Origin: an uncultured Anaerolineales bacterium
GTDB taxonomy: Bacteria; Chloroflexota; Anaerolineae; CG2-30-64-16
Length of the DNA stretch: 64,000 nt
Direction of reading: 5' to 3'
NCBI GenBank assembly: GCA_964614645.1
Contig: CAZTMA010000004.1
Location: 13,555-77,554, forward strand
The notes under the pieces were generated by a model. It was not told the DNA's origin and searched no databases. It saw nothing but the letters and a program-made list of their open reading frames with translations. The position numbers and the translations under genes are program-made. Shown piece by piece: positions 13,790-40,349 of this stretch (within the stretch, counting starts at the first letter, position 1; the number at the start of each line of letters is the position of its first letter).

Positions 13790-13796
13790 CGAGGTT

Positions 13797-14984: not shown

Positions 14985-14987
14985 CCG

Positions 14988-15048
14988 CGAAGACGCGAAG
15001 AACGTCAAAGTTCTCTGATTGGAATGTCTTTGCGTCTTCGCGGTTCAA
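14988..15048 (+). terminator. stem-loop after uxuA (ccgcgaagacgc...gcgtcttcgcgg)
   Basis: 12-bp perfect inverted repeat flanking 37-nt loop between uxuA and next gene. Confidence 0.4.
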
Positions 15049-18287: not shown

Positions 18288-18944
18288 GTGCCAATGCGAC
18301 AAATCTTCGGTCCCAGCGCAAACGTCATTGCTCGGGCTTCGATTATAGGTGGGTTGCTGACGCTGGTCGTCCTCGTGGCAACCGGGTTCGCCTATATCCG
18401 TTCTCCCTATAACACCGAGCAGCGCGTCCACGTGGAGCAGCCGGTGCAGTTCGCGCACCGCACCCACGTCGGCAACGTCGGCCTCGATTGCCGCTACTGC
18501 CACACCACAGTCGAGGACTCCCGCTTTGCAGGCATCCCCCCTATCGCGACCTGCATGAACTGCCATTCGCAGCTGCACGTCAATGCACCCATCCTGGAGC
18601 CGATCCGTGAAGCCTACCGGACGGGCCAGTCGGTGCAGTGGGTACGCGTCCACAACCTGGCCGACTTCGCGTACTTCGACCACAGCGCCCATCTCGCGAA
18701 GGGCGTCGGCTGCACGACCTGTCATGGGCCGGTCGGCGATATGCCCCTCACGTGGCAGGAAAGCACCCTCCTGATGAACTGGTGCCTCGACTGCCACCGC
18801 GCGCCGGAGAAATACCTCCGCCCGCGCGAAGAGGTCTTCAATGCCAACTGGGTGCCGCCGGCCAACCAGCTTGAGGTCGGGCGACAACTCGTCGCCGAAT
18901 ATCAGGTGAACGCCAGGGTCGACTGCTCGACCTGCCATCGGTAG
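18288..18944 (+). CDS. actA: Alternative Complex III pentaheme cytochrome c subunit ActA
   Basis: N-terminal TM then five CxxCH (CRYCH, CMNCH, CTTCH, CLDCH, CSTCH); first gene of act operon. Confidence 0.85.
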   Translation: MPMRQIFGPSANVIARASIIGGLLTLVVLVATGFAYIRSPYNTEQRVHVEQPVQFAHRTHVGNVGLDCRYCHTTVEDSRFAGIPPIATCMNCHSQLHVNAPILEPIREAYRTGQSVQWVRVHNLADFAYFDHSAHLAKGVGCTTCHGPVGDMPLTWQESTLLMNWCLDCHRAPEKYLRPREEVFNANWVPPANQLEVGRQLVAEYQVNARVDCSTCHR

Positions 18945-18967
18945 AACCATCCGAGGGGAAGATATAT

Positions 18968-21951
<2,984 letters not shown>

Positions 21952-21955
<4 letters not shown>

Positions 21956-23352
21956 TACATGAGCAGCCTATCCGCAAGGAACTGATCGGGCCGCCGCTGG
22001 ATCGGGCGGACCTCGTGCCGGTCATCGAGCCCGGCCAAACCTTCGAGTCGGTCAACGAGCAGATCGGCTCCGTCGTCCTGCGCCGCGGCTTCCAGCGTGG
22101 CTGGCTGCTGGGGTTAGCCATCGCGTTCCTGCTGCTGATGGTGTTCCTCGGCGCAGTCACCTGGTTGTTCATCCGGGGCGTCGGAATCTGGGGCATCAAC
22201 ATTCCGGTGGGCTGGGGGTTCGCGATCATCAACCTGGTGTGGTGGATCGGCATCGGCCACGCGGGCACGCTCATCTCGGCCATCCTCCTCCTGCTGCGCC
22301 AGCAGTGGCGCACGTCCATCAACCGGTTTGCCGAGGCCATGACGCTGTTTGCGGTCGCGTGCGCGGCGCTGTTCCCGATCCTGCACCTGGGCCGGCCCCA
22401 ATACTTCTACTGGCTGGTGCCCTACCCGAACACGCTGGACTACTGGCCGCAGTTCCGCAGCCCGCTGATGTGGGACTTCTTCGCCATCGCCACTTACGGC
22501 CTGGTCTCGCTGCTGTTCTGGTTCGTCGGCCTCATCCCCGACATGGCGACGCTGCGAGACCGCGCCAAGAGCACCTTTGCCCGCGTGACCTTCGGCATCC
22601 TGTCGATGGGCTGGCGCGGCTCTGCGGTGCATTGGAAGCGCTATCAGGACCTGTACTATCTCCTGGCAGCGCTGGCGACACCGCTGGTCGTGTCCGTCCA
22701 CAGCATCGTGAGCTACGACTTTGCCGTGAGCGTGATTCCCGGCTGGCACTCGACCATCTTCCCGCCGTACTTCGTGGCCGGCGCGATTTACGCCGGGTTT
22801 GCAATGGTGCTGCTCATCTCCATCCCGCTGCGCAAGTACTACCACATGGAGAACTTCATCACCGACCGTCACCTGCGCAACATGGCGATCGTGATGTTAA
22901 CGTCCGGGCTGGTCGTGGCCTACGGTTACGCCATGGAAATCTTCACCGCCTGGTATAGCGGCAACGAGTACGAAGGCTTCATGATGCTCAATCGGGTGAC
23001 GGGCCCCTACGGCTGGGTGTTTGGCCTGATGATGCTGTGCAATGTCGTCATTCCGCAGCTCCTGTGGATCAAACGCATCCGCACAAACTCACTCTGGCTC
23101 TGGGGCATTTCGCTCGTCATCAGCTTTGGCATGTGGTTCGAGCGCTTCGTCATCGTCGTCACCAGCCTGCACCGGGACTTTCTGCCGTCCTCCTGGGCGA
23201 TGTACACGCCGACGGTCTGGGACTACGCCACGTTCATCGGCACGTTGGGGCTGTTTGGCACGCTGATATTCCTGTTCATCCGCTTCCTGCCGTTCATCTC
23301 GATGGCTGAGACGCGCGAGCTGGTGCACCAGACAGGAGGGAAGGTCGAATGA
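21952..23352 (+). CDS. actC: ACIII membrane subunit ActC (NrfD/PsrC-like, ~10 TM)
   Basis: Polytopic NrfD-like protein, 4-nt overlap with actB. Confidence 0.8.
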
Positions 23353-23927
23353 CCGAGCATGTGGCCCACGACATGACGCATGAGGCTGAAGAGGCCGCGG
23401 TCCGGCCCTACGGTCTCGTGGCCGAGTTCGTGGACGAGCACACTATTCTGGATGCCGCACGCCGCGCATATGCCGAGGGTTACCGCCGGCTGGACGCCTA
23501 CACGCCGATACCGGTGGAAGGTCTGTCGGAGGTGGTCGGCTTCCGCAAGAGCCGCATCCCGCTGCTGATGCTGCTGGGCGGCATCGCCGGGCTGGTGGGC
23601 GGGTTCGCGCTGCAGTATTGGGTACACGTCATCAACTATCCGATTAACATCGGCGGTAAGCCGCTGAACAGCGTGCCCATGTGGGTGCCCATCACGTTCG
23701 AGACGACCGTCTTGCTGGCGGCGTTGACGGGTGTGCTGGCGATGATTCTGCTCAACGGCCTGCCCGCGCCCTACCATCCGCTGTTCAACGTGGCCGAGTT
23801 CGCCCGCGCCAGCCAGGATCGCTTCTTCCTGGCGATTGAGGCGACCGACCCGCGCTTCGATATGACCCAGACCCGCCGGTTCCTGGAGAGCCTGGGCCCG
23901 GCCAGCGTGCACGAGGTGTTGCCGTGA
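23349..23927 (+). CDS. actD: ACIII subunit ActD
   Basis: 192-aa protein with two TM helices (IPLLMLLGGIAGLVGGFALQYW; TTVLLAALTGVLAMILL), 4-nt overlap with actC. Confidence 0.7.
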   Translation: MTEHVAHDMTHEAEEAAVRPYGLVAEFVDEHTILDAARRAYAEGYRRLDAYTPIPVEGLSEVVGFRKSRIPLLMLLGGIAGLVGGFALQYWVHVINYPINIGGKPLNSVPMWVPITFETTVLLAALTGVLAMILLNGLPAPYHPLFNVAEFARASQDRFFLAIEATDPRFDMTQTRRFLESLGPASVHEVLP

Positions 23928-23941
23928 AGGTGAAACGCTTT

Positions 23942-24012
23942 GCCACCGAGAACACAGAGAGCGTAGAGTCTTTCTCTCTCAATAACTCAGTGTCCTCTGT
24001 GACCTCTGTGGC
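23942..24012. repeat. MITE-like element with GCCAC(C/A)GAG...CTCTGTGGC terminal inverted repeats, inserted between actD and actE
   Basis: gccaccgagaacacagagagcgtagagtctttctctctcaataactcagtgtcctctgtgacctctgtggc; 25-nt 3' block shared with copy at 47521-47601. Confidence 0.55.
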
Positions 24013-24589
24013 TAGAAAGCTAAGCTTCCTGCTCCTGGGACTCTTCGCGCTGGTGGCGCTGACGGGCTGCCAGGCGATGGCCGACCAGCCGCGCTATGAT
24101 CCGCTGGAGCCGAGCGCGTTCTTCGCGGACGGGCAGTCAGCGCGGCCGCAGGTCGAGGGGTCTGTAGCGCAGGGCCAGTTGCGCACCAGCGACGTGCGCT
24201 ATACCGGCCAGTTCAACGGTGCGCCGGCGACCGAGTTTCCCTTCGAACTGACCGCCGACCTGCTCGAGCGCGGCCGGCAGGAGTATGACATTTACTGCAC
24301 GCCCTGTCACGGCTTCACCGGCGCGGGCGACGGCATGGTCATCCAGCGCGGATTCCCTGCGCCGCAGACCTTCCACCAGGACCGCCTGCGCACGGCGGCG
24401 CCCGGCTACTTCTTCCAGGTCATCACCAACGGGTTTGGCCGGATGCAACCGTACGCCAGCCAGATCCCCGATGTGGATGACCGCTGGGCCATCGCCGCTT
24501 ACGTGCGGGCCCTGCAACTCAGCCAGGCGGCGCCCGCCGAGGCCCTGCCGGCGGAAGACATGCAGCAACTCGGAGGGGCAACCCAATGA
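24008..24589 (+). CDS. actE: ACIII monoheme cytochrome c lipoprotein ActE (alternative GTG start 23924 overlapping actD stop)
   Basis: Signal peptide + lipobox LFALVALTGC; single CTPCHG heme motif; 4-nt overlap with actF. Confidence 0.75.
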   Translation: MARKLSFLLLGLFALVALTGCQAMADQPRYDPLEPSAFFADGQSARPQVEGSVAQGQLRTSDVRYTGQFNGAPATEFPFELTADLLERGRQEYDIYCTPCHGFTGAGDGMVIQRGFPAPQTFHQDRLRTAAPGYFFQVITNGFGRMQPYASQIPDVDDRWAIAAYVRALQLSQAAPAEALPAEDMQQLGGATQ

Positions 24590-25788
24590 TGACACCACAA
24601 GGCATTCTCCGCCGCATGATGCCCGGCGCACTCGTGGTCGGCGCAGTCGGGCTGATCGCGACGCTGGCGGGCATATTCCTGGGCGTCCCCGGCGCATACC
24701 CCGCCTACCTGTTCGCTTTTGTCTTCTGGACCGGCATGGGCATCGGCAGCCTGCTGCTGGCGCTGCTGCAGCATTTGACCCGCACAGGTTGGGGCGCACC
24801 GATCCAGCGGTTCGTGGAGGCGGGCGCGCGCACCCTGCCGCTGATGCTCGTGCTCTTCATCCCCATCATCTTCGGGATGAAGGCGCTGTACTCGTGGGCG
24901 GACCCGGCGCACGTCATTGGTGACCCGGTCCTGGAGCACAAGCAGCCGTATCTCAACGTGCCTTTCTTCATCATCCGTACGGTCATCTACTTCGCGGTGT
25001 GGACGTTCTTCGCCTACCGGACGGGCGCACTCTCGCTCAAACTCGACGAGACGGGCGACGTGAACATCGCGGGCACGCTGCGGGGCATGGGCGCGGGCGG
25101 GCTGCTCGCCGTCACACTGACCGCTTCGTTCGCCGCCTTCGACTGGGTGATGTCGCTGGATCCGCACTGGCTGTCCAGCATCTTTGGCCTGATGGTCACG
25201 ATGGGCATGATGCTGGGCGCGTTTGCGCTGGCCATAGCCCTGGCAACCTGGGCGTCGGACTGGCCGCCGCTCGATGCGGCTGTCTCTCCCCGGCGCTTCA
25301 ATGACCTGGGCAGCCTGATGCTTGCCTTTGTCATGATCTGGGCCTATCTGTCGTTCTCCCAGTACTTGCTCATCTGGGCCGCAAACATCACCGAAGAAGT
25401 GCCGTGGTACCTGGCACGCATGGCGGGCGGCTGGAAATACATCGCCATCGCCATCATCGCGCTGCACTTCGCACTGCCCTTCATCATGTTGATGTTCCGC
25501 GATGTGAAGCGCAACCGGAGGCTGCTGACGGCCATCGGACTCTTCCTGGTGCTCATGCGTGCGGTCGACACCTTCTGGCTGGTCGTCCCGTCGCTGGGCG
25601 CCGCCGGTGTGGGCGCCATCTGGCCCCACCTGACCGCGCTGGTCGGGGTTGGAGGCCTGTGGGCCGCCTTCTTCGCCTGGAACCTGGCGCGGGCGCCGCT
25701 GCTGCCCGTCGGCCTGCCGGCGCCCATGCAGGACCATGCGGCGGTTTCTGAACCTCATAACAACAGGATCGTGCGGCATGAGCGATAA
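24586..25788 (+). CDS. actF: ACIII membrane subunit ActF (NrfD-like)
   Basis: Polytopic membrane protein paralogous to ActC. Confidence 0.8.
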   Translation: MMTPQGILRRMMPGALVVGAVGLIATLAGIFLGVPGAYPAYLFAFVFWTGMGIGSLLLALLQHLTRTGWGAPIQRFVEAGARTLPLMLVLFIPIIFGMKALYSWADPAHVIGDPVLEHKQPYLNVPFFIIRTVIYFAVWTFFAYRTGALSLKLDETGDVNIAGTLRGMGAGGLLAVTLTASFAAFDWVMSLDPHWLSSIFGLMVTMGMMLGAFALAIALATWASDWPPLDAAVSPRRFNDLGSLMLAFVMIWAYLSFSQYLLIWAANITEEVPWYLARMAGGWKYIAIAIIALHFALPFIMLMFRDVKRNRRLLTAIGLFLVLMRAVDTFWLVVPSLGAAGVGAIWPHLTALVGVGGLWAAFFAWNLARAPLLPVGLPAPMQDHAAVSEPHNNRIVRHER

Positions 25789-26506
25789 GCCAAATCCGAC
25801 TGACCCGCGGGGTAAGCCGCGAGAACGCCACCAGCCGTCCGGCTATTTCCGAGGCGCCGAGCCTAAAGGGCGCAAGCTCACCGAGCAGGAGGCGCATGAC
25901 CGGGGGGTCAGCGATCCGGAGACGGCCGAGCGGCTGGGCACCGACCGGCTTGCGCAGGAACAGCCATCCCCTGCACAAGGCGCGGTCGAGGAGCGCGCCG
26001 CCAACCGGCAGGCCGCTCAAGCTGTGCCGCCTGGGGCGGCGCAGCCCCACGAGCGCCGAGAAGTGCACCAAAGCCAGCATGATGTGGATGCCGTGCGGGA
26101 TGACCCCCACGCCCCGGCCATCGCGCACGGCGCGCCATCGGGCACGACCGAGGCGCAGCACGAGACGTCCGATGTGGGGCTGAACATCCTGGTCGTGGCC
26201 GGGGCCATTGTCGGCGGGTTAATCATCATCGCACTGATCGTGGTCGGCCTGCTCACGAATGTGTTCTACAGCTCGCCGGACACGCAGCCGCAGGGCGGCT
26301 CGCCCATCGAAACTGCTGCGCCGCCCGCTGCGGTCGAAATGCGCGTCAACCCCGTGAGTGCGCTCGACCGCTACCAGGCGGCTGCACAGGAGACACTCAA
26401 CAGCTATGGCTGGGTGGATGAGGCGACGGGTGTCGCCCGTATCCCGATCACGCGTGCCATGACGCTGATTACCGAGGGCCTGACGCCGGCGGTGGGCCAG
26501 GAATGA
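25778..26506 (+). CDS. ActG-like single-pass membrane protein with low-complexity Pro/Ala/Gln-rich N-terminus
   Basis: Last ORF of act cluster; TM VGLNILVVAGAIVGGLIIIALIVVGLL; periplasmic C-terminal tail; assignment to ActG by position only. Confidence 0.4.
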   Translation: MSDKPNPTDPRGKPRERHQPSGYFRGAEPKGRKLTEQEAHDRGVSDPETAERLGTDRLAQEQPSPAQGAVEERAANRQAAQAVPPGAAQPHERREVHQSQHDVDAVRDDPHAPAIAHGAPSGTTEAQHETSDVGLNILVVAGAIVGGLIIIALIVVGLLTNVFYSSPDTQPQGGSPIETAAPPAAVEMRVNPVSALDRYQAAAQETLNSYGWVDEATGVARIPITRAMTLITEGLTPAVGQE

Positions 26507-26602
26507 AACGTAAGCCCGGCGCGTGATGGCAGTTAAACCAACATACAAGGGGACAGCAGGGGCATATATTAGGGGCCATTATCACAGAAGGGTTAAGGGT
26601 TA

Positions 26603-27544
26603 ATGGTTATGTTCGACACAAAACGACAGGCATCCCACCAGGGCCGATCGACGGGCGAGAACCGGGTCGGCTTTGTTATGCTGCTGGCCCTGCTGATGAC
26701 GCTGCTGACATTACCGGCCGGCGCGGTCTACGCGCAGGATGATTCAGATATGAATCACACTGCTGAGGAAGCCATACTCAACCAGGTGTCATTCGATCAG
26801 AATCTCGACAGCCAGATGCCCCTGGAAGTGCCCATGATCGACGAGCAGGGGCGCCGCGTGACGCTCGGCCAGTACCTGGGCGCAAAGCCGGCCATCCTGG
26901 TGTTCACCTACTACGACTGCCCCAACCTGTGCCCCATCATCTTGCACGGGTTGAGCGAATCGTTGCGCACCATGCAGGTCGAGGTGGGCAAGGAATTCGA
27001 CGTCGTGGTCGCCAGCATCGACCCGCGCGAGACGCCGGAGCAGTCCACCGCGGCCAAAGCCGCCATCATCGCCAGCTATGGTCGTTGGGGCTCCCAGGAC
27101 GGCTGGCACTTCCTGACTGCGCCGGAAGATTCGATCGTGCGGCTGGCGGATACCGCGGGTTTCCATTATGTCTACGACCCTAAGTCCGACCAGTACGCGC
27201 ACCCCGCTGGCATTCTGGTGATGACGCCGGGCGGCCGGATTTCGAAGTATCTCTACGGGCTGGAGTTTTCGCCGCGTGACCTGAAGCTGGCGCTGGTGGA
27301 TGCCTCCGCGGGCAAGATTGGCAGCGCGGTGGACCAGCTCCTCCTGCGCTGCTTCCACTATGACCCGACGCGGGGCAAGTATACCGTCGCCATCCGGGAG
27401 ATTCTCAAGTATGCTGCCCTGCTCACGATGTTCGGGCTCGGTGCCATGGTGCTGGTGCTGGCACGTTCAAAGCCCCGCCAGTCGGAGCCACCGATTTTGT
27501 CGACCGAGGAGCAGGTTGATGACCAGAAGGAGAGCCAGTCGTGA
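26603..27544 (+). CDS. SCO1/SenC copper chaperone (thioredoxin-like)
   Basis: N-terminal TM/signal; CPNLCP CxxxC copper-binding motif; located before cox genes. Confidence 0.8.
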   Translation: MVMFDTKRQASHQGRSTGENRVGFVMLLALLMTLLTLPAGAVYAQDDSDMNHTAEEAILNQVSFDQNLDSQMPLEVPMIDEQGRRVTLGQYLGAKPAILVFTYYDCPNLCPIILHGLSESLRTMQVEVGKEFDVVVASIDPRETPEQSTAAKAAIIASYGRWGSQDGWHFLTAPEDSIVRLADTAGFHYVYDPKSDQYAHPAGILVMTPGGRISKYLYGLEFSPRDLKLALVDASAGKIGSAVDQLLLRCFHYDPTRGKYTVAIREILKYAALLTMFGLGAMVLVLARSKPRQSEPPILSTEEQVDDQKESQS

Positions 27545-28496
27545 ATACCCAGTGGACGCTTGACCAGGCAACCGCCCATGCAGGCCGGGTGGACACGCTC
27601 TTCCTGGTCCTGGTGGCCGCCAGTGCGATCGTCATTATTGGCATAACAAGCGCACTGACCTACTTCATCCTGAAGTACCGCCGCGGCAAGGATGCTGACC
27701 GCACCAACCCGGTGGAGACGCATCACAAGCTGGAATTGACGTGGACGATTGTCCCGCTGGTGCTTTCCCTGGGCGTGTTCCTCTGGGCCGGCCGCCTCTA
27801 TTTTCAGATGTACGATGTGCCATCCGACGCCATGGAAGTATATGTCATCGGCAAGCAGTGGATGTGGAAGTTCCAGCATCCGGACACGGGCCAGATCGAG
27901 GTTAACGACCTGCACGTACCCGTCAACCGGCCTATTAAACTCACAATGACATCTGAGGACGTGATCCACAGCCTGTACGTCCCCGCGTTCCGCATCAAGA
28001 CCGATGTACTGCCGGGGCGCTACACGACCGTCTGGTTTGAGGCCACTGAGACGGGCAATTATCACCTGTTCTGCGCCGAATACTGCGGCACGGACCACTC
28101 GGGCATGACCGGCCAGGTGATCGTGATGCCGGAAGAAGAGTACCTCGCCTGGGCCAGCGGAGGAGGCGCGGCGGGCGGCCAGCCGGTCTCTGCGGCGCAG
28201 GCCGGTGAGCAGCTGTTCACCCGGACGGGCTGCGTAGCGTGCCACAAGCTCGACGGCACTGCGGCAGTCGGCCCGGCACTTGCTGGCATCTTCGGGCAGG
28301 AAGTCAGGTTGGCGAGCGGAGAAACCGTCACGCGTGACGAGGCGTACCTGCGGAAATCCATCCTCGAACCGGCCACTCAGGTGGTCGAGGGTTACCAGCC
28401 GGTGATGCCGCCATACCAGGGGCAGTTGACCGAGGATCAGGTGTTACAGATCATCGCCTATATCAAGGAGTTAGGCGCCGAACAAGGGGGTGCGCA

Positions 28497-28500
<4 letters not shown>
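27541..28500 (+). CDS. coxB: cytochrome c oxidase subunit II, caa3-type (C-terminal cytochrome c domain)
   Basis: CuA site HSLYVP...[15 protein letters not shown]; C-terminal CVACH heme-c motif. Confidence 0.9.
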
Positions 28501-30162
<1,662 letters not shown>

Positions 30163-30170
<8 letters not shown>

Positions 30171-30831
30171 CATATCGCAAATCGCAATCGAAGCACGGCC
30201 GGGCGTAGCGCACCATTTCGATGACGTTGAACAGCAGCACGAGGCCAACACCCTCGGCATGTGGGTGTTCCTCACAACTGAGGTACTGTTCTTCGGCGGC
30301 GTGTTCCTCGGCTACCTGGTGTTCCGTTCGCTGTACCCGCAGGCGTTCGCGCAGGCGAGCCACCACTTGAACGTTCCGTTGGGCACGGCCAACACGGCGC
30401 TCCTGCTGTGCAGCAGCTTGGCGATGGTTCTCGCGGTCTACTTCGTACGTCGAGACCAGAAGCGCACCGCGGTCATGCTGTTGCTGCTCACCGCAGCGCT
30501 CGGCACGGCCTTCCTGGGCATCAAGGCGGTCGAGTGGATCGTGGACTGGAACGAGGGGCTGGTGCCGGGCCTGAACTGGCTCGTCACGGGGCCCAATGCA
30601 GACCAGGAAGAGTTGTTCTTCGTCCTGTACTTCACCATGACAGGCCTGCACGCCATCCACATGATCATCGGCATTGCCGTCGTGGGCCTTGCGGCGCTGT
30701 GGCTTCTGCGCAAGCGGCACGTCGCGCAGATGTATACCAACATCGAGATGATCGGACTCTACTGGCACTTCGTGGACATCGTGTGGGTCTTCCTGTTCCC
30801 ACTGCTCTACCTGATTAACCTGCACGGCTGA
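30163..30831 (+). CDS. coxC: cytochrome c oxidase subunit III
   Basis: 222-aa 5-TM protein following coxA with overlap. Confidence 0.85.
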
Positions 30832-31343: not shown

Positions 31344-33944
31344 TTGCCTTGCGCACGCGAAAGGAGAGTTTCAAATGGGGCTTACAGAGTAACCAGCAGC
31401 ACATCTGATGGGGAGGCAGCGACACGAGGCCAGCGCGCCGTCTATGACCACATCGCGATCGAGCAGAAGTGGCGGGCACGCTGGGCCACCGACGCGCTGT
31501 ATCGTACCCCGGCGCCCGCACCGGACCGGCCCAAGTACTATTGCCTGGATTTCTTCCCCTATCCTTCAGGGTACGGGTTGAGCGTCGGGCACGGCCGCAA
31601 CTACGTGCCCAGCGATGTCATCGCGCGCTTCTATCGGATGCAGGGCCGCGCGGTGTTGCACCCGATGGGCTGGGATGCATTCGGCCTGCCCGCTGAGAAC
31701 GAAGCCATCAAACGCGGCGTCCACCCGCGCGAAACCACCTCGCAATACGCCGCGAACTACCGCCGCCAGATGACCCTGATGGGCTGCTCGTACGACTGGG
31801 AACGCGAGATCAACTCGAGCACGCCCGACTTCTACCGCTGGACGCAGTGGTTCTTCCTGCTGCTGTACCACCGCGGGCTGGCCTATCGCGCCGTGGGCCG
31901 GCAGTGGTGGTGCCCCGGCTGCCAGACTGTCCTGGCCAATGAGCAGGTCGATGCCAGCGGGACCTGCTGGCGCGGGCACACCGGCGTCTACAAGCGCGAC
32001 ATGGAGCAGTGGTATCTGCGTATCACAGCCTATGCCGAGCAACTGCTGGATGACCTGGCCACGCTGGACTGGCCGGAGCACATCGTCGCAATGCAGCGCA
32101 ACTGGATCGGGCGCAGCGAGGGTGTCGAGTTCAGCATGCCCATCCACGATGCCTCAGGTGAGAGCGCGGGGCTGCAAATCGACGTCTTCACCACGCGACC
32201 GGACACCATTCCGGGCGTGACGTTCGTGGCCATCGCGCCGGAGCATCCGCTCGTCGGGCAAGTCATCGACGGCGAAGCGATTCCCGGCGAGCAGCGTGCT
32301 GCGGTGGCTGCCTACCGCGAGCAGGCTGTCCGCCGCAGCGACATCGACCGCATGCAGGGCGACCGCACGCGCGCGGGCGCGTTCACGGGCATGTACGCGG
32401 TCAACCCGCTGAACGGCGAGCGCGTCCCCGTGTACCTGGCCGACTATGTGCTGATGGCCTACGGCAGCGGGGCCATCATGGGCGTGCCCGCGCACGACCA
32501 GCGCGACTTCGAGTTCGCGGTCCAGCACGGCATCCCGGTCAAGGTCGTCGTCGCACCACCCACCGGGGATGTGCCGGGACAGGCCGCCTACACGGAAGCG
32601 GGCATGATGGTGGATGCCGGGGCGTGGACCGGGCTGCCCTCCAAGGAGGCTGCAGTACGCATCACCGCCTGGCTGACCGGCCAGGGCACCGGACGCTCCA
32701 GCGTCCAATACAGGATGCGCGACTGGCTGATCTCGCGGCAGCGGTACTGGGGCGCGCCGATCCCGATTGTCTACTGCGACCGCTGCGGGATGCTACCCGT
32801 GCCTGAGTCCGAGCTGCCGGTGCTGCTGCCGGACATCGAACGCTGGCTGCCGGGTGACGACGGTCGCTCGCCGCTGGCAGGGCTGCCGTCGTTTGTCGAG
32901 ACCCGCTGTCCGCAGTGCGGCAGGCCGGCGCGCCGCGAGACCGATACGATGGACGGCTTTGCCTGCTCCAGCTGGTACTTCCTGCGCTTCGTCAGCCCGG
33001 ACTACGCCGACGGCCCCTTTGACCCGGCAGCCCTGGCGCAGTGGGGCAGCCCGGACATCTACGTTGGCGGTGCGGAGCACGCGGTGATGCACCTGCTGTA
33101 CGCCCGCTTCTGGACGAAGGTGATGGCAGACGCCGGGATCGTGCCGTTCCACGAGCCGTTCCCGGTGCTGCGCAGCCAGGGCACAATGCACGCCCGCGAC
33201 CCGCTGAACGGCGAGCTGCGGCGCATGTCCAAGTCCACGGGCAACGTGGTGACGCCTGACAGCGTGGCCGAGTCGCACGGCGCAGATGCGCTGCGGGTCT
33301 ACCTGCTGTTCATGGCTCCCTTCGAGAACAACACCGTCTGGGATGGGGGGGGCGTCAACGGCGCGCGACGCTTCCTGGAGCGTACGTGGCGGCTGGTGAA
33401 CGAGGTCGCCGGCGCCCGCGCGGCAGGTGACACTGCCCGCTCACCGAACGCTGCGGAGGAGGAACTGGCCCGCGCCGTACGCCGTACGGTGCGCAAGGTG
33501 ACTGAGGACATGGAGACGCTGGCCTTCAACACCGCGGTGGCTGCGCTGATGAAGTGCCTGAACACGATGAACGAGTATCGCGCCGCCCACGGCATCACAT
33601 GGGCGCTGAGCCGGGCCGTACGCGACTTCGTGCTGGTGCTGGCGCCCTTTGCACCCCATATCGCGGAAGAGCTGTCGGAGAGGTTGGGCGAGCCGTACAG
33701 CGTCCACTGCCGGCAGTGGCCCGCTCACGATGACCCGGCCGATGCTGACGGGGAGGGCATCGTCCTGGTCGTGCAGGTGGATGGCCGGGTGCGCGACCGG
33801 CTGGTCCTGGCGGCAGGGGTCCCCAAGGACGAAGTCCGTGCGCGCGCGCTGGGCAGCCCCGCGGTGCAGCGCGCGCTGCGCGGCAGCACGGTGGCACGCG
33901 TGATATACGTGCCGGGTCGCCTGCTGAACATCGTAACGGAATAA
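31344..33944 (+). CDS. leuS: leucyl-tRNA synthetase
   Basis: HMGH-type class I motif, KMSKS (RMSKSTGNVV), CP1 editing domain; only in-frame start before conserved block is TTG 31344. Confidence 0.9.
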   Translation: MPCARERRVSNGAYRVTSSTSDGEAATRGQRAVYDHIAIEQKWRARWATDALYRTPAPAPDRPKYYCLDFFPYPSGYGLSVGHGRNYVPSDVIARFYRMQGRAVLHPMGWDAFGLPAENEAIKRGVHPRETTSQYAANYRRQMTLMGCSYDWEREINSSTPDFYRWTQWFFLLLYHRGLAYRAVGRQWWCPGCQTVLANEQVDASGTCWRGHTGVYKRDMEQWYLRITAYAEQLLDDLATLDWPEHIVAMQRNWIGRSEGVEFSMPIHDASGESAGLQIDVFTTRPDTIPGVTFVAIAPEHPLVGQVIDGEAIPGEQRAAVAAYREQAVRRSDIDRMQGDRTRAGAFTGMYAVNPLNGERVPVYLADYVLMAYGSGAIMGVPAHDQRDFEFAVQHGIPVKVVVAPPTGDVPGQAAYTEAGMMVDAGAWTGLPSKEAAVRITAWLTGQGTGRSSVQYRMRDWLISRQRYWGAPIPIVYCDRCGMLPVPESELPVLLPDIERWLPGDDGRSPLAGLPSFVETRCPQCGRPARRETDTMDGFACSSWYFLRFVSPDYADGPFDPAALAQWGSPDIYVGGAEHAVMHLLYARFWTKVMADAGIVPFHEPFPVLRSQGTMHARDPLNGELRRMSKSTGNVVTPDSVAESHGADALRVYLLFMAPFENNTVWDGGGVNGARRFLERTWRLVNEVAGARAAGDTARSPNAAEEELARAVRRTVRKVTEDMETLAFNTAVAALMKCLNTMNEYRAAHGITWALSRAVRDFVLVLAPFAPHIAEELSERLGEPYSVHCRQWPAHDDPADADGEGIVLVVQVDGRVRDRLVLAAGVPKDEVRARALGSPAVQRALRGSTVARVIYVPGRLLNIVTE

Positions 33945-34027
33945 CCCCGGCTCTCGATTTGACACATCGACGAGGGGAGCCTACACTTGCAACGCAGTAG
34001 CATTTGCAACAAGTGGAGGTTCCCCTC

Positions 34028-34849
34028 ATGTCTCCTCAGTCTGAGTTGCGCGACACCTTGCGCGAGTCCGGCCGGCGGCTGACTGACCAGCGACAACTGC
34101 TGCTGGAGTTGCTCCAGGAGCACGGCGGCCATCTGGACGCGCGCGAACTCTATCGCCTCGCACAAGAGCGTGACCCCCGGCTGAACCTTTCCACGGTCTA
34201 TCGCACGCTCGGTTTGCTGCGCGATCTCGGCCTCGTGGACGAGCAACACCTGGGCGAAGATCACCATCACTATGAATTGAAGGCGCCGGCCACACACTAC
34301 CACCTCGTCTGCCGGACCTGCGGCTCGGTCATCGAGTTCACCAGTCCCTTGATCGAGCAGTTGAAGGAAGCTATCGGGCGAGAACTGGATTATGCGATTG
34401 CCGATGCACAGGTGGACCTATTGGGCATCTGCGCCGCCTGCCGCGCGGCCACCGCTTCGCCGTCGGCTGAGCCTGAGCCCGTGCCGCCGCGCAGGACGGG
34501 CCCGCGTACCCGCATGGTGAATATCCTCCGTCGATCCCTGCACCCTGGAGATGCCGCGCCTACGGAAACACAGCCGAATGCAGCCGGCCAGGACGAGGCG
34601 CTCTCCCTGCGCACGCTGCTCACCGGCAGCTCGGCGCGTGTGGCTGCGCTGACGGGCGGGCATGACCTGGTGGCGCGACTGGCTGCGCTGGGCCTGACGC
34701 CGGGCACGACGCTGGAGGTGGCGCAAAATCCGGGCCAGGGACCGGTCATCGTCCTGGTGCGCGACACGCGCCTGGTGCTCGGCCGCGGAGAGGCGGCCCA
34801 TATCCTGGTCGTACCCACTGAGGCAGCGCATGGCCGACAAGTCGATTGA
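34028..34849 (+). CDS. Fur-family metalloregulator fused to C-terminal FeoA (SH3-like) domain
   Basis: Fur fold: HHHYEL, HLVCRTCGSVIEF, ICAACR (Cys4); linker; FeoA-like LSLRTLLTGSSARVAALTGGHDLVARLAALGLTPGTTLEV...LVLGRGEAAHILVVP; no stop between domains; overlaps feoB start. Confidence 0.65.
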   Translation: MSPQSELRDTLRESGRRLTDQRQLLLELLQEHGGHLDARELYRLAQERDPRLNLSTVYRTLGLLRDLGLVDEQHLGEDHHHYELKAPATHYHLVCRTCGSVIEFTSPLIEQLKEAIGRELDYAIADAQVDLLGICAACRAATASPSAEPEPVPPRRTGPRTRMVNILRRSLHPGDAAPTETQPNAAGQDEALSLRTLLTGSSARVAALTGGHDLVARLAALGLTPGTTLEVAQNPGQGPVIVLVRDTRLVLGRGEAAHILVVPTEAAHGRQVD

Positions 34850-36839
34850 GCCGCGCACCCTCACGGTCGCGCTGGTCGGCCAGCCCAACGTGGGCAAGTC
34901 GATCATCTTCAACATGCTCACCGGTCTCTCGCAGCATGTCGCCAACTGGCCCGGCAAGACCAGCGAGCAGCGCGTGGGAGAGCACCGGCAGAACGGCACG
35001 CTGCTGCGCGTGGTCGACCTGCCCGGCATCTACAGCCTCACGGCCAACTCCGAAGAAGAGCGCATTGCCCGTGACTACATCATCTGCCAGCGGCCGGATG
35101 TCGTGGCAGTGATCGTCGATGCCGCGGCGCTGGAGCGCAACCTCTACCTGCTGGCCGAGCTGCTGGGCCTGCCGATTCCCATCGTCGTGGGCCTCAATCT
35201 GATGGACGTGGCCGCGCAGGAGGGGCTGCAGGTCGAGCCGCACGTGCTGGAGGCCGCGCTGGGCGTGCCGGTGGTGCCGATGGTCGCCACCCGTAATCAG
35301 GGTGTGCGCGAGCTTGTGGAGGCCGCCACCCGGGCAGCGCGCCAGCCGGCCAGCCTGTCTCCCCGGCGGCCGGAGATTCGGGCTGACCACGCGGCCGTCC
35401 TGGCTGAGGTGGGCCGGCTGATTGCCGGTCGCGTGCCCGAGCCTTACCCTGAACATTGGGTGGCGCTGAAGCTGCTGGAAGGGGACGCCGAGATCACCGC
35501 TATGCTGCGGCCGCGGCTGGGCGACCGGTGGGACAGCCTGCACGCGCTGCTGATGCAACACGAGGATGCGGTGCTGGCAGTCGCGAGCGGCCGCTATGAG
35601 TGGATCGGGCGGATGGTGCGCGCGGCGGTCACACGGCCGCGGCCGGGACGGGTGTCGCTCACCAGCCGCATCGACCGGCTGGCCACGCACCCGCTGGTGG
35701 GGCTGGTGATCCTGGCCGCGGTGCTCGGGCTGACGTTCTGGCTGACGTATGCAATCGGCACGCCGCTGCAGGCGTTCCTGGACACGCACCTGGTGCACGC
35801 GGGCGCAGCCTGGGCGCGGGATGCACTGGCCGGCGCGCCGGCGTGGGTCGGCAGCCTCGTGGCCGACGGCATTATCGCGGGCGTCGGGCTCGTACTGACG
35901 TTCCTGCCCATACTGCTGATTTTCTTCGCGGCGCTCGGGTTGCTGGAAGATGTGGGGTACATTGCGCGCGCGGCCTATGTCACTGACCGGTTCATGCACT
36001 TTATGGGGCTGCACGGCAAGAGTTTCCTCCCCCTCTTTCTCGGCTTCGGCTGCAACGTGCCCGCCATCATGGCGGCCCGCACTATCGATTCCACGAAGGC
36101 GCGGCTGCTGACGATCATCCTGGCCCCTTTTGTGCCCTGTCCCGCGCGCATGAGCGTGGTCGCGATCCTGACGCCGATCTTCTTCACTGCACATGCCCCC
36201 TGGGTCGCGCTGGGCCTGATGGCTCTGGCTATGCTGGTGATGGTGTTGGTTGGCCTGCTGCTCCACGAGCTGCTGCTGGGCGGCGAGCACGTCGCCTTCA
36301 TTATGGAGCTGCCGCTGTACCATCCACCCGATGCACGGGCCATTCTGCGCTCCATCTACGAGCGGCTGATTGACTTCCTGCGCGTGGCGGGCAGCATCAT
36401 CCTGATCGTCTCCGTGTTGCTGTGGGGCCTGCTCAGCCTGCCGACGGGGCAGGTGGAAACGAGCTACCTCGCCGCGTTTGGCCGCCTGCTGGAGCCGGTC
36501 GGCGCACTGATGGGCCTGAGTTGGCAGTTGATGGTGGCACTGGTGACCAGCTTCGTCCGCAAGGAGAATGTCATCGCTACCCTCGGCGTGTTGTATGGCT
36601 CGGGGGAGGCCGGGGCTGGGCTGGCGGAGACGCTGACGGGCATCGTGACGCCCGCCACCGCGCTGGCATTCATGGCCGTCCAGATGTTGTTCGTGCCGTG
36701 TGTCGCGACAGTGGCTGCCATCCGGCAGGAGACGCGTAGTTGGGGCTGGACGGCTCTCAGCATTGCGCTGCCCCTGGTCATTTCGCTCGCGCTGGGTACG
36801 GCCATCTATCACGCTGCCAGGTGGCTGCTGACAGTGTGA
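34830..36839 (+). CDS. feoB: ferrous iron transporter FeoB
   Basis: G-domain LTVALVGQPNVGKSIIFNMLTG, DLPG, membrane permease C-terminal region; 669 aa. Confidence 0.9.
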   Translation: MADKSIEPRTLTVALVGQPNVGKSIIFNMLTGLSQHVANWPGKTSEQRVGEHRQNGTLLRVVDLPGIYSLTANSEEERIARDYIICQRPDVVAVIVDAAALERNLYLLAELLGLPIPIVVGLNLMDVAAQEGLQVEPHVLEAALGVPVVPMVATRNQGVRELVEAATRAARQPASLSPRRPEIRADHAAVLAEVGRLIAGRVPEPYPEHWVALKLLEGDAEITAMLRPRLGDRWDSLHALLMQHEDAVLAVASGRYEWIGRMVRAAVTRPRPGRVSLTSRIDRLATHPLVGLVILAAVLGLTFWLTYAIGTPLQAFLDTHLVHAGAAWARDALAGAPAWVGSLVADGIIAGVGLVLTFLPILLIFFAALGLLEDVGYIARAAYVTDRFMHFMGLHGKSFLPLFLGFGCNVPAIMAARTIDSTKARLLTIILAPFVPCPARMSVVAILTPIFFTAHAPWVALGLMALAMLVMVLVGLLLHELLLGGEHVAFIMELPLYHPPDARAILRSIYERLIDFLRVAGSIILIVSVLLWGLLSLPTGQVETSYLAAFGRLLEPVGALMGLSWQLMVALVTSFVRKENVIATLGVLYGSGEAGAGLAETLTGIVTPATALAFMAVQMLFVPCVATVAAIRQETRSWGWTALSIALPLVISLALGTAIYHAARWLLTV

Positions 36840-36919
36840 TAGCCATACCACTTCGACCATTGCCGCAGTAACGCGCACATGCGACGGACGGCTATAGTGC
36901 TTTTCCTCACTTCTGAGTT

Positions 36920-36948
36920 TTGACACAAAAAGCACAATGTGATACCCT
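36920..36948 (+). promoter_or_regulatory. possible promoter for cytochrome gene (-35 TTGACA, weak -10 TACCCT)
   Basis: Perfect -35 hexamer 17 bp upstream of weak -10; sequence only. Confidence 0.25.
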
Positions 36949-37017
36949 TCATGTGGTCCTCATTACATTCAGACCGCAAATCTCCATCCCACTATCCTCA
37001 ATGGAGAGAAAGGCAAC

Positions 37018-39420
37018 ATGAAGAGAACACTCGTGGTCCTCCTTGCATTGGTGGTCGTCTTGACCACCCTCGCGGCCTGTTCAGGCACCGCTGGTCCCGC
37101 CGGCCCTGCCGGCCCGCAAGGTCCTGCCGGTCCCGCAGGCCCTGCTGGCCCTGCCGGTCCTGCTGGTCCTGCAGGCCCCGCTGGCGCGGAAGGCGCAGCA
37201 GGCGTGACGATGGTCGCCGACACGACGACCCCGCCCGAGACCTGCGCGATCTGCCACAAGGGCGCTGGCGAAAAGCACCAGGCGTCCTACGATGACTTGT
37301 ACCAGGACGCCGTGATTCGGGTCACCGATGTGGCTTATGCCTTCACGGCGGCGCCCGATACAACCACCATCACCTTCAAGATGACGAAGAACGGCGAGCC
37401 ATTCGACCCGAAGCAGGCGGATAATATATCCATCTACTTCGTGCCCTACGCGGACGGCAAATTCCAGTTCGACCCGCCCGCCGAACGCGTGTCGTTGAAG
37501 GGAACGCTGGATTCGGATGGCGCCGGCAACGGGACGAGCACGCTGGTCGAGAAGGAAGCGGGCGCCGAGGATTTCGTTGACTACACCGACATCAGCGGCG
37601 TCAACGGCCTCATCGTCATCTACGGCCGCGACGAAACCGTCCAGCGGCTGCCAGGCACGCGCGTCGACCAGAACCGGTTCCCGTTCGCGGCAGTGCTGGA
37701 GACCGGCGCAGGCGTCGACTACGTTTCGCCGGCCAACAACGATGGCTGCGAACTCTGCCACACGCAGCCCTATCTCAAACACAGCTACATCTACGGCCAG
37801 GTCGACAACGACTCTGCCACCGACTTCTACACCTGCAAGGCCTGCCATCTCGACAATGGCACGGGCGAGCACTTCGAATGGCAGCTCCTGGTGGAGGATC
37901 CGGAGCTGGCCGCGCAGTTCCTGGCTGGCGAGGTGGAGCTGACCGAAGAGCAACATCAGCAGTTCGCGTACAACCCGTCCGTGATGAACGACGTGCATAT
38001 GTCGCATGCCATGGAATTCCCGTATCCGCAGTCCATGGCGAACTGCGTCACCTGCCACGAAGGCAAGCTCGACGCCATCCTGACGGACGCAGCCTTCAAC
38101 ATCACGACCTGCCGCAGCTGCCATCCCATGACGGGCGCGAAGGCTGAGTCCGCTGAGGGTGAGGACCCGGCCTACGACACGACCGCTCTGGCGCTGAAGA
38201 CGCTCCTGACCGGCCCGCATGCCGACATGGACCTGGCGACGACCGACTGCTCGACCTGCCACGGCGAAGGCAAGATGGCGGGCACCTGGAGCCTGGTCCA
38301 TACCGGGTATGACGATATGATCTACACGGCGGACGGCATCCGGTATTCCGAGGCCATCTCCGTCACCATCGAGAGCGCCACGTTGGACGGCGATACGCTC
38401 AGCGTGAAGTTCAGCGCGGCCGAATCGCCGGACATCGAAGGCGTGGACGCAGCCGACATCGTACCCACCGTCCTGGTGGGCCTGTACGGCTGGGACACGA
38501 AGGACTTCATCGTCGGCGCGCACGAGCGTCTGTTCGACGATAACGGCGACGGCGCGATCACCAGCGACGATAGCCGGACCCTGGAGTTCGAAGTCGGCGC
38601 CGAGCATCCTCGCATGAAGACGGTCTCGGCCGAAGGTGGCAGCTGGGAAGTCACTGCCGACTTGGCGCCCTGGAAGGACCTCATCGCGGACGGCACTGTG
38701 AAGCGCGTCGAAGTGGGCGTCCTGCCAGCGCTGGTCGTCGATGAGCAGGAACTTGCCATCGATGCGGCCACCAAGACGTTCGACCTGGCCGCGAACGCGT
38801 TCGATGACGAGTACTTCCAGCCCATCGCGGACATCGAACGCTGCGAGAACTGCCATGCGGCGCTCGCCACGAACTTCCACAGCCCGGATTACGGCGGCAG
38901 TGTCACTGCCTGCCGGATGTGCCATGTCACCAAGTCGGGTGGCTCGCACCTGGAGATGCAGTCGCGGTCGCTGGATTCCTATGCGCACGCGATCCACTCC
39001 GGCCAGGCCTTCGACATCGCTGATGTCGACTTCGGCGACCCGGTGCAGGCCCTGGCGTACGAGCACCACATCGGGTTCCCGTATCCGACACATGCCAACA
39101 CGAACTGCGAGTCCTGCCACTTCCCGGGCACCTACGAAGTGCCTGACCAGGCCAAGTCGCTGCCGGGGCTGCTTTCGGCATCCGACGACAACGAGACGCT
39201 GGACCGGGACATCGAGGACGTGCCGTCCTATGTCACGGGGCCGGCCACTCGGGCCTGCGGCGGCTGCCACCGGGCGGAGCTGATCAAGGAAGACAGCGCA
39301 GGTGGGTTCGCCATGCTGAAAGAGCACATGGACATGGGCGGCTACTTCATTGAAGCTGGGGAGAAGCCTGCAGAGACGCTCCAGTCAGTGTTCGACGAGG
39401 TCATGCCGCTGTTCAAGTAA
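37018..39420 (+). CDS. decaheme c-type cytochrome lipoprotein with N-terminal collagen-like (Gly-Pro-Ala)n tether
   Basis: Signal peptide + lipobox LAACSG; ~13 Gly-X-Y triplets; ten CxxCH motifs (CAICH, CELCH, CKACH, CVTCH, CRSCH, CSTCH, CENCH, CRMCH, CESCH, CGGCH). Confidence 0.85.
37083..37197 (+). repeat. tandem 9-bp (GGNCCNGCN) repeats encoding collagen-like GPAGPAGPQ... segment
   Basis: ggtcccgccggccctgccggcccgcaaggtcctgcc... ~12 degenerate 9-bp units. Confidence 0.7.
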
Positions 39421-39475
39421 GCGGTATCCGGTCGCAGAGACGCTCCGGTGGAACGTCTCTGCGACAACTGAAGAT

Positions 39476-39510
39476 AAAGAAGGAGGGCCCCCGTGGGGGC
39501 CCTCCTTTTG
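39476..39510 (+). terminator. rho-independent terminator after cytochrome gene
   Basis: aaggagggcccc-cgt-gggggccctcctt followed by TTGTGTG; preceded by second hairpin tcgcagagacg...cgtctctgcga. Confidence 0.7.
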
Positions 39511-39535
39511 TGTGACTTGGATTGACCGGGCACGC

Positions 39536-39958
39536 TCAGGAATAGCGCCAATCCTCCAAGCTCAGACCTTGAAAAGAAGCATAGTCATTACGATTGAGCG
39601 TCACCAGCTTCAAGCCGTTCGTGACCGCAATGGCCGCAATCTGTCCATCAGCAAACGGTGGCAGCCTGCCAACAGCCGCTAGTCGCGCGCGCTCTTCCGC
39701 GTGCCAATATGCCGCTCGCTGGTCATACGCCAGGATCGGGATTGCACGACCAACCACATCTTTGAGATAAGCCTCGATTGTTGTGCGCTTGGATGATGGC
39801 GGCAACCGTTTGCAGCCGTACCATAACTCGTGCCAGACCACAGAGGCAATCGCGATCTCGGCCTGATGCGCTCGTAAGTTATCCAGCAACTCCTGGTTGG
39901 GGACGGGTCGCAGCGGTTCTGAAACAACATTCGTATCGAGGAGATACTGGAGCGTCAC
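39536..39958 (-). CDS. vapC: VapC-family PIN-domain toxin
   Basis: MTLQYLLDTNVVSE...; PIN acidic residues; 4-nt overlap with upstream antitoxin. Confidence 0.85.
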   Translation of the reverse strand: MTLQYLLDTNVVSEPLRPVPNQELLDNLRAHQAEIAIASVVWHELWYGCKRLPPSSKRTTIEAYLKDVVGRAIPILAYDQRAAYWHAEERARLAAVGRLPPFADGQIAAIAVTNGLKLVTLNRNDYASFQGLSLEDWRYS

Positions 39959-40233
39959 CAGTTCATCTCCCGTCCGGGCGATGTGTCCCGCACGCCATCG
40001 AAAACATCTGGCTCGATGCCCTCCTTAGCCAGGTCTACCGCCTTGCGGAACGCATCATAGGCGCTTGTGAAGGTCACGGTACCCGCGCTGAGCCTCTCGA
40101 ATTCCTCCACAGAGATCAAAATCGCCACCGGCCGGCCGCGCCGCGTCACCTCAACCCGCGAGACGTGTCGGAGGTCTTGGACAATTTCAGCAAAACGATT
40201 GCGCGCTTCGGCTATAGAATATCTGGGCATCAT
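39955..40233 (-). CDS. type II antitoxin (Phd/YefM-like)
   Basis: MMPRYSIAEARNRFAEIV...VTRRGRPVAILISVEEFERL; GGAGG SD 5 nt before ATG; overlaps vapC. Confidence 0.7.
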   Translation of the reverse strand: MMPRYSIAEARNRFAEIVQDLRHVSRVEVTRRGRPVAILISVEEFERLSAGTVTFTSAYDAFRKAVDLAKEGIEPDVFDGVRDTSPGREMNW

Positions 40234-40349
40234 AGGAGCCTCCAAATGGCTATCTTGATAGCCATCTTACACCTTCTGCGTTTCGGTGTCAACTGCGCTC
40301 GTCTCACCAATCCCCGGTTTTGACACGCCAACAACCGTACGTGAGCGCC

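Follow-up and report, generated by a model that had tools for sequence, protein, structure and literature searches.

A remote MtrC/OmcA-type decaheme lipoprotein with a collagen-like tether in an uncultured Anaerolineales bacterium

The decaheme cytochromes MtrC, OmcA, MtrF and UndA of Shewanella (PDB 4LM8, 4LMH, 3PMQ, 3UCP, and 6QYC) are lipoproteins anchored at the N-terminus, in which a Gly-rich linker after the lipobox is followed by four domains in the order beta-barrel, multiheme, beta-barrel, multiheme. Their ten CxxCH motifs are divided 5 + 5 between domains II and IV (the "staggered cross"), MtrAB is their porin-cytochrome partner, and domain III contains a CX8-15C disulfide (Edwards et al., 2015). 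In a survey of mtrCAB, none was found in Gram-positive bacteria. Here we describe a distant relative of these proteins from Chloroflexota: a gene at positions 37018–39420 on the forward strand of a 64,000-nucleotide (nt) stretch of DNA, called the window below, from an uncultured Anaerolineales bacterium (assembly GCA_964614645.1, contig CAZTMA010000004.1). From an ATG start codon, this open reading frame (ORF) encodes an 800-residue lipoprotein precursor, which has ten CxxCH motifs and, between the predicted lipid anchor and the first of them, a collagen-like tether of Gly-X-Y triplets. We propose, with a probability of about 0.6, that the protein is a membrane-anchored, stalk-mounted terminal cytochrome for extracellular electron transfer.

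Surface cytochromes have also been described in bacteria without an outer membrane. OcwA of Thermincola potens is a cell-surface terminal reductase of a Gram-positive bacterium and carries nine hemes (PMC6703420). Chloroflexota are regarded as lacking an outer membrane, and in Anaerolineales no porin-cytochrome complexes were found, which was attributed to the envelope (Arbour et al., 2020). Among Chloroflexi isolates, extracellular electron transfer has been demonstrated only for Ardenticatena maritima, which has a surface heptaheme cytochrome, ARMA_0580 (PMC5808234). Large multiheme cytochromes without porin partners have been noted in the literature for Anaerolineales and Ardenticatena, and the papers that name MtrC or OmcA in Anaerolineae do so by automated annotation only.

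Collagen-like repeats are known from proteins of other kinds. Streptococcus Scl1/Scl2, Bacillus BclA and Legionella Lcl (PF01391) contain uninterrupted Gly-X-Y triplets, with Pro mainly at X and without hydroxyproline, as does the protein described here. Repeats of bacterial collagen-like proteins reach about 80 triplets or more, and these proteins are adhesins or spore filaments with a globular trimerisation domain, whereas the family treated below has 7–20 triplets, a lipid anchor and a redox domain. An analogy may also be drawn to collagen XIII/XVII, MARCO, and SR-A, in which an N-terminal membrane anchor is followed by a collagenous rod projecting a functional head; these differ in being eukaryotic, in having a transmembrane helix with a coiled coil and hydroxyproline, and in their unrelated sequence and function.

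Fold, heme layout and family

The Anaerolineales protein belongs, as a remote member, to the OmcA/MtrC superfamily, whose decaheme cytochromes have four domains. In Pfam, PF22113 (MtrC/MtrF domain II/IV) matches two stretches of it (6.9e-24; 84.8 bits against a cut-off of 30), and generic multiheme models are matched as well. An AlphaFold2 model, built from an alignment of 52 relatives, has the same domain order as the Shewanella proteins. A Foldseek comparison of this model with the PDB gave 15 significant matches, all of them MtrC, MtrF, OmcA or UndA (E 2e-13 to 3e-9), in alignments of 640–880 columns with 12–14% identity; no nitrite-reductase, hydroxylamine-oxidoreductase or OcwA-like fold was among them. 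An earlier note, made from the sequence alone, had called the protein an MtrC/OmcA-like 800-residue decaheme lipoprotein with ~13 Gly-Pro-Ala triplets, and had named a nitrite/hydroxylamine reductase-type fold as counter-evidence. The reading frame, the lipobox cysteine, the ten CxxCH sites and the superfamily are all borne out here, the triplet count was essentially right, and the contrary fold did not appear among the structure matches.

The precursor starts with a predicted lipoprotein signal peptide (aa 1–20), which has a basic n-region and a hydrophobic core, and a lipobox, LAAC, of the pattern [LVI][ASTVI][GAS]C (together 37018–37080, forward strand as for all parts of this gene); Cys21 (codon 37078–37080) is the residue predicted to be lipid-modified. 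The tether follows, with 14 uninterrupted Gly-X-Y triplets (aa 23–64; 37084–37209), ten of which are exactly GPA. A neck (aa 65–75) then leads to the first heme motif, P-E-T-C76AICH80 (neck and motif 37210–37257), which lies 11 residues past the tether and ahead of domain I. Domain I (aa ~100–230; 37315–37707) is a beta-barrel that aligns to the MtrC-family structures, with a predicted local distance difference test score (pLDDT) of mostly 80–92. PF22113 and the model place the pentaheme domain II at 37735–38307, with CxxCH motifs at aa 244, 273, 343, 365, and 411. Domain III (aa ~447–590; 38356–38787; pLDDT 80–95) is again a beta-barrel. Domain IV, delimited by motifs, Pfam and the model, has four heme motifs at aa 609, 632, 697, and 747, and extends through a helical C-terminus to the stop codon (38815–39420).

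The resemblance to the Shewanella proteins covers the domain order, the ten CxxCH motifs, the N-terminal lipoprotein anchor, PF22113, and the Gly-rich linker after the lipobox, while identity to them is only 11–15%. The heme motifs are arranged 1 + 5 + 4 instead of 5 + 5: one motif, at aa 76, precedes domain I, and domain IV is without its last heme; the PF22113 match there spans profile positions 5–132 of 176 and leaves the last heme position unmatched. The Cys pair of the Shewanella-type disulfide is also missing from domain III; the lipobox Cys21 is the sole cysteine of the protein outside the CxxCH motifs. All ten motifs are conserved in 118 of 121 sequences (the protein and its 120 closest relatives), and ten in-frame motifs with no stray cysteine and with such conservation rule out chance. 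In the alignment of 52 relatives, the ten motifs and at least 13 further histidines are invariant, enough for bis-His ligation and compatible with ten bis-His hemes. E74, C76, C79, H80, and H87, around the isolated first motif, are invariant among the aligned relatives.

The family is large. A word-indexed protein database yielded 1,532 relatives among the candidates scored, of which the top 120 are 58–92% identical to the protein and nearly all decaheme; those with names come from Anaerolineae/Anaerolineales metagenome-assembled genomes (MAGs) or are called "OmcA/MtrC family decaheme c-type cytochrome." Chloroflexota MAGs, those of Anaerolineae and Caldilineae among them, account for most of the 197 matching stretches in a collection of species-representative genomes, and the closest match (92%) belongs to a MAG from an anaerobic membrane bioreactor. 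An exhaustive search of representatives at 50% identity gave 417 clusters at E <= 1e-3 and 181 at E <= 1e-30, some distant ones being from Xanthomonadales and Burkholderiales MAGs. The 1 + 5 + 4 layout is found in almost every full-length subfamily representative, and three rare members have the classical 5 + 5. The kind of protein itself is already known, as automated annotation recognises such proteins; a large, porin-less Chloroflexota subfamily with 1 + 5 + 4 hemes and no domain III disulfide is new or undescribed.

Two described proteins invite comparison on the side of physiology. OcwA shares with the present protein a proposed surface role in a bacterium without an outer membrane. Its fold, which we take to be related to NrfA-type enzymes, is not represented among the structure matches, and a collagen-like tether has not been reported for it. 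ARMA_0580 is likewise a surface multiheme cytochrome in presumed monoderm, filamentous Chloroflexi, a surface site being predicted for the present protein; by its description it is set apart as a different protein with seven hemes, for which neither an MtrC fold nor a collagen-like tether has been reported.

Anchor, tether and other cytochromes

The tether is recognised as collagen-like at the borderline: Pfam Collagen (PF01391) scores 27.2 bits, equal to its gathering cut-off of 27.2, and the further matches, all weak, are bacterial collagen-like models, BclA and collagen chains. Among PDB sequences, the tether matches solely collagens and BclA. Residues 22–84 have pLDDT below 50 in the model, and Pfam recognises no trimerisation domain in the 800-residue protein.

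A census of tethers was made on the protein and its 120 closest relatives, of which 116 with complete N-termini were kept. A lipobox cysteine is present in 52 of the 116, and 46 of these 52 carry at least seven Gly-X-Y triplets (range 7–20, median 11, in tethered members), whereas no run of seven or more triplets occurs in the 64 members without lipobox (Fisher 4e-26). The run begins 0–2 residues past the cysteine in most members, and the commonest length of the neck before the first heme motif is 11 residues across the decaheme family. Because the sequences are related, the traits were also mapped on a tree of the heme core built by neighbour joining: it requires at least 16 changes of the lipobox and at least 17 of the Gly-X-Y run, the two changing together. 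These sequence comparisons show a tight evolutionary coupling of predicted anchor and tether. Members from which the cysteine has been lost retain decayed remnants of the repeat. In some orthologues with a lipobox, Pro/Ala-rich or Pro/Thr/Glu-rich linkers of comparable length replace the triplets, so that an extended length is at least part of the requirement.

Among distant relatives, P0250, P0253, P0265, P0280, P0285 and P0297 have alternative N-termini in place of the Gly-X-Y run. Part of them contain Ala/Leu/Gln-rich, coiled-coil-like segments, and others a short GSDGSDG run followed by KSAYEIAVxNGFTGTEEEW; Pfam gave sub-threshold matches only on both kinds.

Furthermore, the tether is found on cytochromes other than the decaheme. 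About 1.3 Mb of DNA, the window and 80 related loci, was scanned for runs of six or more Gly-X-Y triplets. Such runs are present in 35 of 46 candidate multiheme lipoproteins and in none of 18 other lipoprotein candidates, whose linkers are non-periodic and rich in Pro/Ala/Thr/Glu; for example, no Gly-X-Y run is seen in the sugar-binding lipoprotein (54909–56156, minus strand) or the ActE lipoprotein of the window. Within the sampled DNA the predicted tether is therefore restricted to cytochromes, and at least three multiheme lipoprotein families unrelated to one another bear it, as judged from sequence. A tethered hexaheme of ~350 residues is encoded in two tandem copies directly after the decaheme of locus L014 and is also found in L028, L084, and L087, while a tethered octaheme in L042 and a tethered 448-residue pentaheme in L084 are both unrelated to the decaheme. 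For the hexaheme, more than 2,600 relatives are known from the search; a lipobox with 7–18 triplets is present in 101 of 102 complete N-termini, and the remaining one, with a mis-called start, also has both. The tether is a recurrent module of thousands of Anaerolineae multiheme lipoproteins and is not peculiar to one gene.

Cytochromes encoded at one locus have similar spacings between the lipobox cysteine and the first heme (45/47/47 residues in L014, 35/43 in L028, 51/59 in L042). In the first 120 nt, which cover the signal peptide, the lipobox and the first triplets, decaheme and hexaheme genes are 82–83% identical in L014 and 71% in L028, although their heme domains are unrelated; the same comparison between genomes gives 57–67%, the within-locus similarity coming from two genomes only.

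A shorter form of the linker exists in the model proteins. After the lipobox cysteine, Shewanella OmcA and UndA read GSD-GKD-GED-GKP-G and MtrC reads GSD-GNN-GND-GSD, that is, 4–5 triplets against the 14 Pro-rich triplets of the present protein, whose host presumably lacks an outer membrane. The tether is therefore an expansion of a linker typical of the family and no invention of this gene. The proposal that a collagen-like stalk on a multiheme cytochrome is undescribed holds in so far as no paper describing such segments on these proteins was found in the literature; as a peculiarity of one protein it does not hold, given the recurrence of the module and the short Shewanella version. What is new or undescribed is the tether as an anchor-coupled module, confined to cytochromes in the DNA sampled and common to several families of them.

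Locus L084 also encodes, at 12845–15007 on the plus strand, another decaheme lipoprotein of 720 residues with a 5 + 5 layout, in which the linker after the lipobox, PCPVPEPCPECPQVSCPDCPECPEP, is Cys/Pro-rich and not Gly-X-Y.

Local signals and respiratory surroundings

Upstream of the cytochrome gene, a promoter-like site of inferred function can be read at 36920–36948 (forward strand), consisting of TTGACA (36920–36925), a 17-nt spacer and TACCCT (36943–36948), with a TG at the extended -10 position (36940–36941). It is absent from the list of a consensus scan because the -10 hexamer matches the consensus at just three of six positions. The ~115 bp before the start codon, both hexamers included, are conserved in three genomes (the window and its two closest), while the intergenic part next to feoB is variable, with an insertion of ~100 bp in L004. 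A Shine-Dalgarno-like GGAGAG (37003–37008, forward strand) lies 10 nt 5′ of the ATG and is conserved in L004 and L005. The leader of ~70 nt from the promoter-like site to the start codon (36949–37017, forward strand) is almost invariant in the three closest genomes and matched no Rfam family.

Downstream, folding predicts two tandem hairpins (39431–39465 and 39474–39513), which probably form a bidirectional terminator between the convergent cytochrome and vapC genes (39431–39513); the pair has a folding energy of -57.9 kcal/mol (z = -6.3 against shuffles), and the second hairpin is followed by a U-run, UUUUGUGUG. In an Rfam scan of 33900–39600, the only matches were sub-threshold ones on these hairpins. 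A VapC (PIN)/Phd-YefM toxin-antitoxin pair (39536–40245, minus strand) is oriented towards the cytochrome gene. The closest genome (L001, 12382–14816) has a restriction-modification pair, of a BsuBI/PstI-type endonuclease and an Eco57I-type enzyme, inserted between the two, so the spot downstream of the cytochrome gene is variable. An antisense ORF of 748 residues (37081–39327, minus strand) was set aside, as its counterparts cluster across loci solely as shadows of the coding frame in high-GC DNA.

The genes upstream on the same strand are a Fur-FeoA fusion gene (34004–34849) and feoB (34830–36839), identified by domain search (together 34004–36839) and treated here as neighbours. The fusion is one ORF of 281 residues, with a Fur domain at aa 22–138 and a FeoA domain at aa 201–270, and overlaps feoB by 20 nt; a Fur-FeoA fusion is likewise annotated in L001. 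Its promoter-like site, TTGACA-17-TACACT at 33959–33987, is overlapped by an inverted repeat, CACTTG-N20-CAAGTG. No repeat resembling it was seen upstream of the cytochrome gene, and since it occurs at fur-feoA only, no regulatory link to the cytochrome is demonstrable.

Further upstream, domain search identifies genes for alternative complex III (ACIII), SCO1 and a caa3-type oxidase (18288–30831, forward strand). The ACIII cluster (actABCDEF, 18288–25788) comprises the pentaheme actA, a fused actB, actC, actD, the lipoprotein gene actE and actF; the oxidase (27541–30831) consists of coxII with a cytochrome c domain, coxI and coxIII. Located 6–19 kb upstream of the cytochrome gene, they encode all the respiratory heme machinery of the window apart from the decaheme itself. 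With ACIII, SCO1 and the oxidase, the host should be able to respire oxygen, though its nearest relative is from an anaerobic bioreactor. ActA is the only other multiheme gene product of the window, and no MtrA/MtrB-like genes are present in its 64,000 nt. The ACIII/caa3 chain is a candidate electron partner of the decaheme.

Respiratory modules of several kinds adjoin the family elsewhere. An ACIII-like cluster lies directly upstream of the homologue in L014 and in L084/L085, in the latter case next to tethered hexahemes, the homologue of L021 follows a cytochrome b fused to several cytochrome c domains, and NapC/NirT-type multiheme proteins are encoded near the family in L003, L033, L036, and L087, those of the first three with 15 hemes. 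When all ORFs within 10 kb of 80 homologues were clustered, no conserved partner recurred, iron-uptake genes included; NarL-type response regulators led the list with 18 loci, ahead of generic ABC ATPases with 17 and a pentaheme cytochrome with 13.

The large respiratory gene clusters of L014 (CP070639.1, 1–15092) and L084 (CP070764.1, 1137–15007) encode an ACIII-like complex in which the molybdopterin/iron-sulfur subunit is split and cytochrome c subunits are added. On its flanks are several multiheme cytochromes with lipid anchors, mostly bearing collagen-like tethers. Elsewhere in the window, a ribonucleotide reductase gene (8774–12499, plus strand) carries an intein with a LAGLIDADG endonuclease domain, and a UvrD/PcrA helicase gene (56353–59883, minus strand) carries an intein with Intein_splicing and Hint domains.

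Proposed role and rival explanations

In the role proposed above, the precursor would be exported, and Cys21 would be lipid-modified and stay in the outer face of the cytoplasmic membrane. The 14 triplets and the 11-residue neck would form an extended stalk, of ~12 nm if helical or polyproline-like (42 residues, each contributing the 0.286 nm by which collagen rises) and 6–17 nm across the family, positioning the heme domain at or beyond the cell wall. Ten bis-His hemes may then pass respiratory electrons from a quinol-oxidising module of the membrane to acceptors outside the cell, for example Fe(III)/Mn(IV) minerals, humics, electrodes or partner cells, and the flow is possibly reversible. 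ACIII or an ACIII-like complex would be the candidate donor, and in other genomes NapC/NirT-like proteins or cytochrome b-c fusions. Localisation, direction of electron flow, electron donor and stalk conformation are what we infer from gene and protein sequences.

Several points weigh against this reading. NCBIfam TIGR03507 aligns to aa 244–775 with 114.3 bits, below its curated cut-off of 209.3, despite which many relatives are called "OmcA/MtrC family" in the naming of the Joint Genome Institute (JGI). Mean pLDDT of the AlphaFold2 model is 67: the two beta-barrels are confident, and values under 50 are common in the heme regions, as the model contains no hemes. Profile and single-sequence searches of PDB sequences found no match for the heme part and never reached MtrC; the relationship is therefore remote and needs fold comparison. 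Most related loci carry the decaheme gene alone, without MtrA/B. The envelope type of the host is taken from the literature, in which Anaerolineales and Ardenticatena are treated as lacking a Gram-negative envelope, and the tether is also present on relatives from Xanthomonadales MAGs, so that the stalk is not solely a monoderm adaptation. Finally, a stiff stalk of 12 nm would keep the head away from donors in the membrane, and an intermediate carrier or a flexible tether would be needed.

The nearest genes suggest a different role. The cytochrome gene starts 178 bp downstream of feoB on the same strand, no terminator-like site lies between them, and read-through from feoB is possible. The earlier note, which was right about the position after fur-feoA/feoB (fur and feoA being one fused ORF) and about the strong terminator, had read the locus as an assimilatory "reduce-then-import" unit, in which the decaheme reduces extracellular Fe(III), FeoAB imports Fe(II) and Fur-FeoA co-regulates the two. 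The order cox - leuS - fur/feoA - feoB - decaheme is indeed kept in the two closest genomes (L004, L005), but these are 92% identical and syntenic, and FeoB is absent within 10 kb of the homologue in the other ~78 species-level loci. The cytochrome gene has its own conserved -35/-10-like region beside a variable feoB-side sequence, a search for Fur boxes (E. coli consensus, up to three mismatches) gave no match, and a surface protein of ten hemes and 800 residues would be a costly route to trace iron. Elsewhere, the family adjoins quinol-oxidising modules or stands alone. The unit is unsupported, and we consider it improbable. Slightly less so, though still unlikely, is a mainly inward flow, with electrons taken up from Fe(II) outside the cell, a cathode or a partner cell and delivered to the ACIII/caa3 chain. 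It would fit the respiratory heme systems of the window, the ACIII-like clusters that abut tethered cytochromes in L014 and L084, the anodic and cathodic electron transfer both shown for the Chloroflexi isolate Ardenticatena maritima, and metagenomic work that flags Anaerolineae as possible iron oxidisers. Sequence, however, cannot reveal direction, the closest MAG is that of the anaerobic membrane bioreactor, and the cox/ACIII linkage is unconserved beyond the closest genomes.

The tether, too, can be explained in other ways than as a simple spacer. Neutral low-complexity sequence from slippage of a 9-bp repeat would account for the 9-bp period reported by Tandem Repeats Finder and for the variation of triplet number among close relatives. 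The repeat units of the window are, however, 76% alike with mixed synonymous codons, Gly periodicity is kept at 52–68% protein identity and in unrelated cytochrome families, and members that lose the lipobox lose the run as well. The codon diversity, the decayed remnants in Cys-less members, the Pro bias (72% at X and 10% at Y, where residues are mostly Ala, Glu, Gln, Thr or Pro), and differences by whole triplets (the two closest relatives have 14 and 15) suggest that selection has acted on the protein repeat and speak against recent slippage; the neutral reading is very improbable. More deserving of attention, if still doubtful, is that the run folds into a true collagen triple helix, nucleated at three lipid anchors, which bundles three cytochromes on a rigid stalk and is an assembly element rather than only a spacer; homotrimers or mixed decaheme/hexaheme trimers are both conceivable at this tentative level. 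Strict Gly periodicity over 7–20 triplets with the Pro bias just given, the start of the run next to the cysteine, the confinement to multiheme lipoproteins in the ~1.3 Mb, the near-universal tether of full-length hexahemes, the matching tether lengths of co-encoded cytochromes, the similar leader-plus-tether cassettes of L014 and L028, and the coiled-coil-like N-termini that some distant relatives have instead are all in its favour. On the other hand, the run is short, with neither hydroxyproline nor a recognised trimerisation domain, known MtrC-family structures are not trimers, the 4–5 triplets of the Shewanella homologues are too few for a stable helix, and some orthologues have swapped the triplets for non-periodic linkers; the cassette similarity comes from two genomes, and recombination between adjacent repeats could explain it.

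It may be, though we hold this only tentatively, that short collagen triple helices, registered by the lipid anchors, tie three cytochromes together on one stalk of 6–17 nm. Such trimers might be of like subunits or, with equal reserve, mixed, for example one decaheme and the two hexahemes encoded alongside. If so, a defined heme-dense layer would exist outside the wall, an unrecognised conduit route in bacteria without an outer membrane, and the collagen fold would here serve a redox purpose for the first time.

In sediments, digesters and wastewater systems, few bacteria are more abundant than Anaerolineae, which are also frequently enriched on electrodes. The family described here, MtrC-type decahemes without a porin partner, is a concrete candidate for their electron exchange with solids. 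As the stalk goes together with the anchor, is confined to multiheme cytochromes in the DNA sampled, and recurs in unrelated families of them, it offers a simple mark by which surface redox proteins may be sought in metagenome sequences. The short Gly-X-Y linker in OmcA, UndA and MtrC of Shewanella is a variation on this theme, and the structural question that the stalk raises, spacer or trimerising rod, can be tested.

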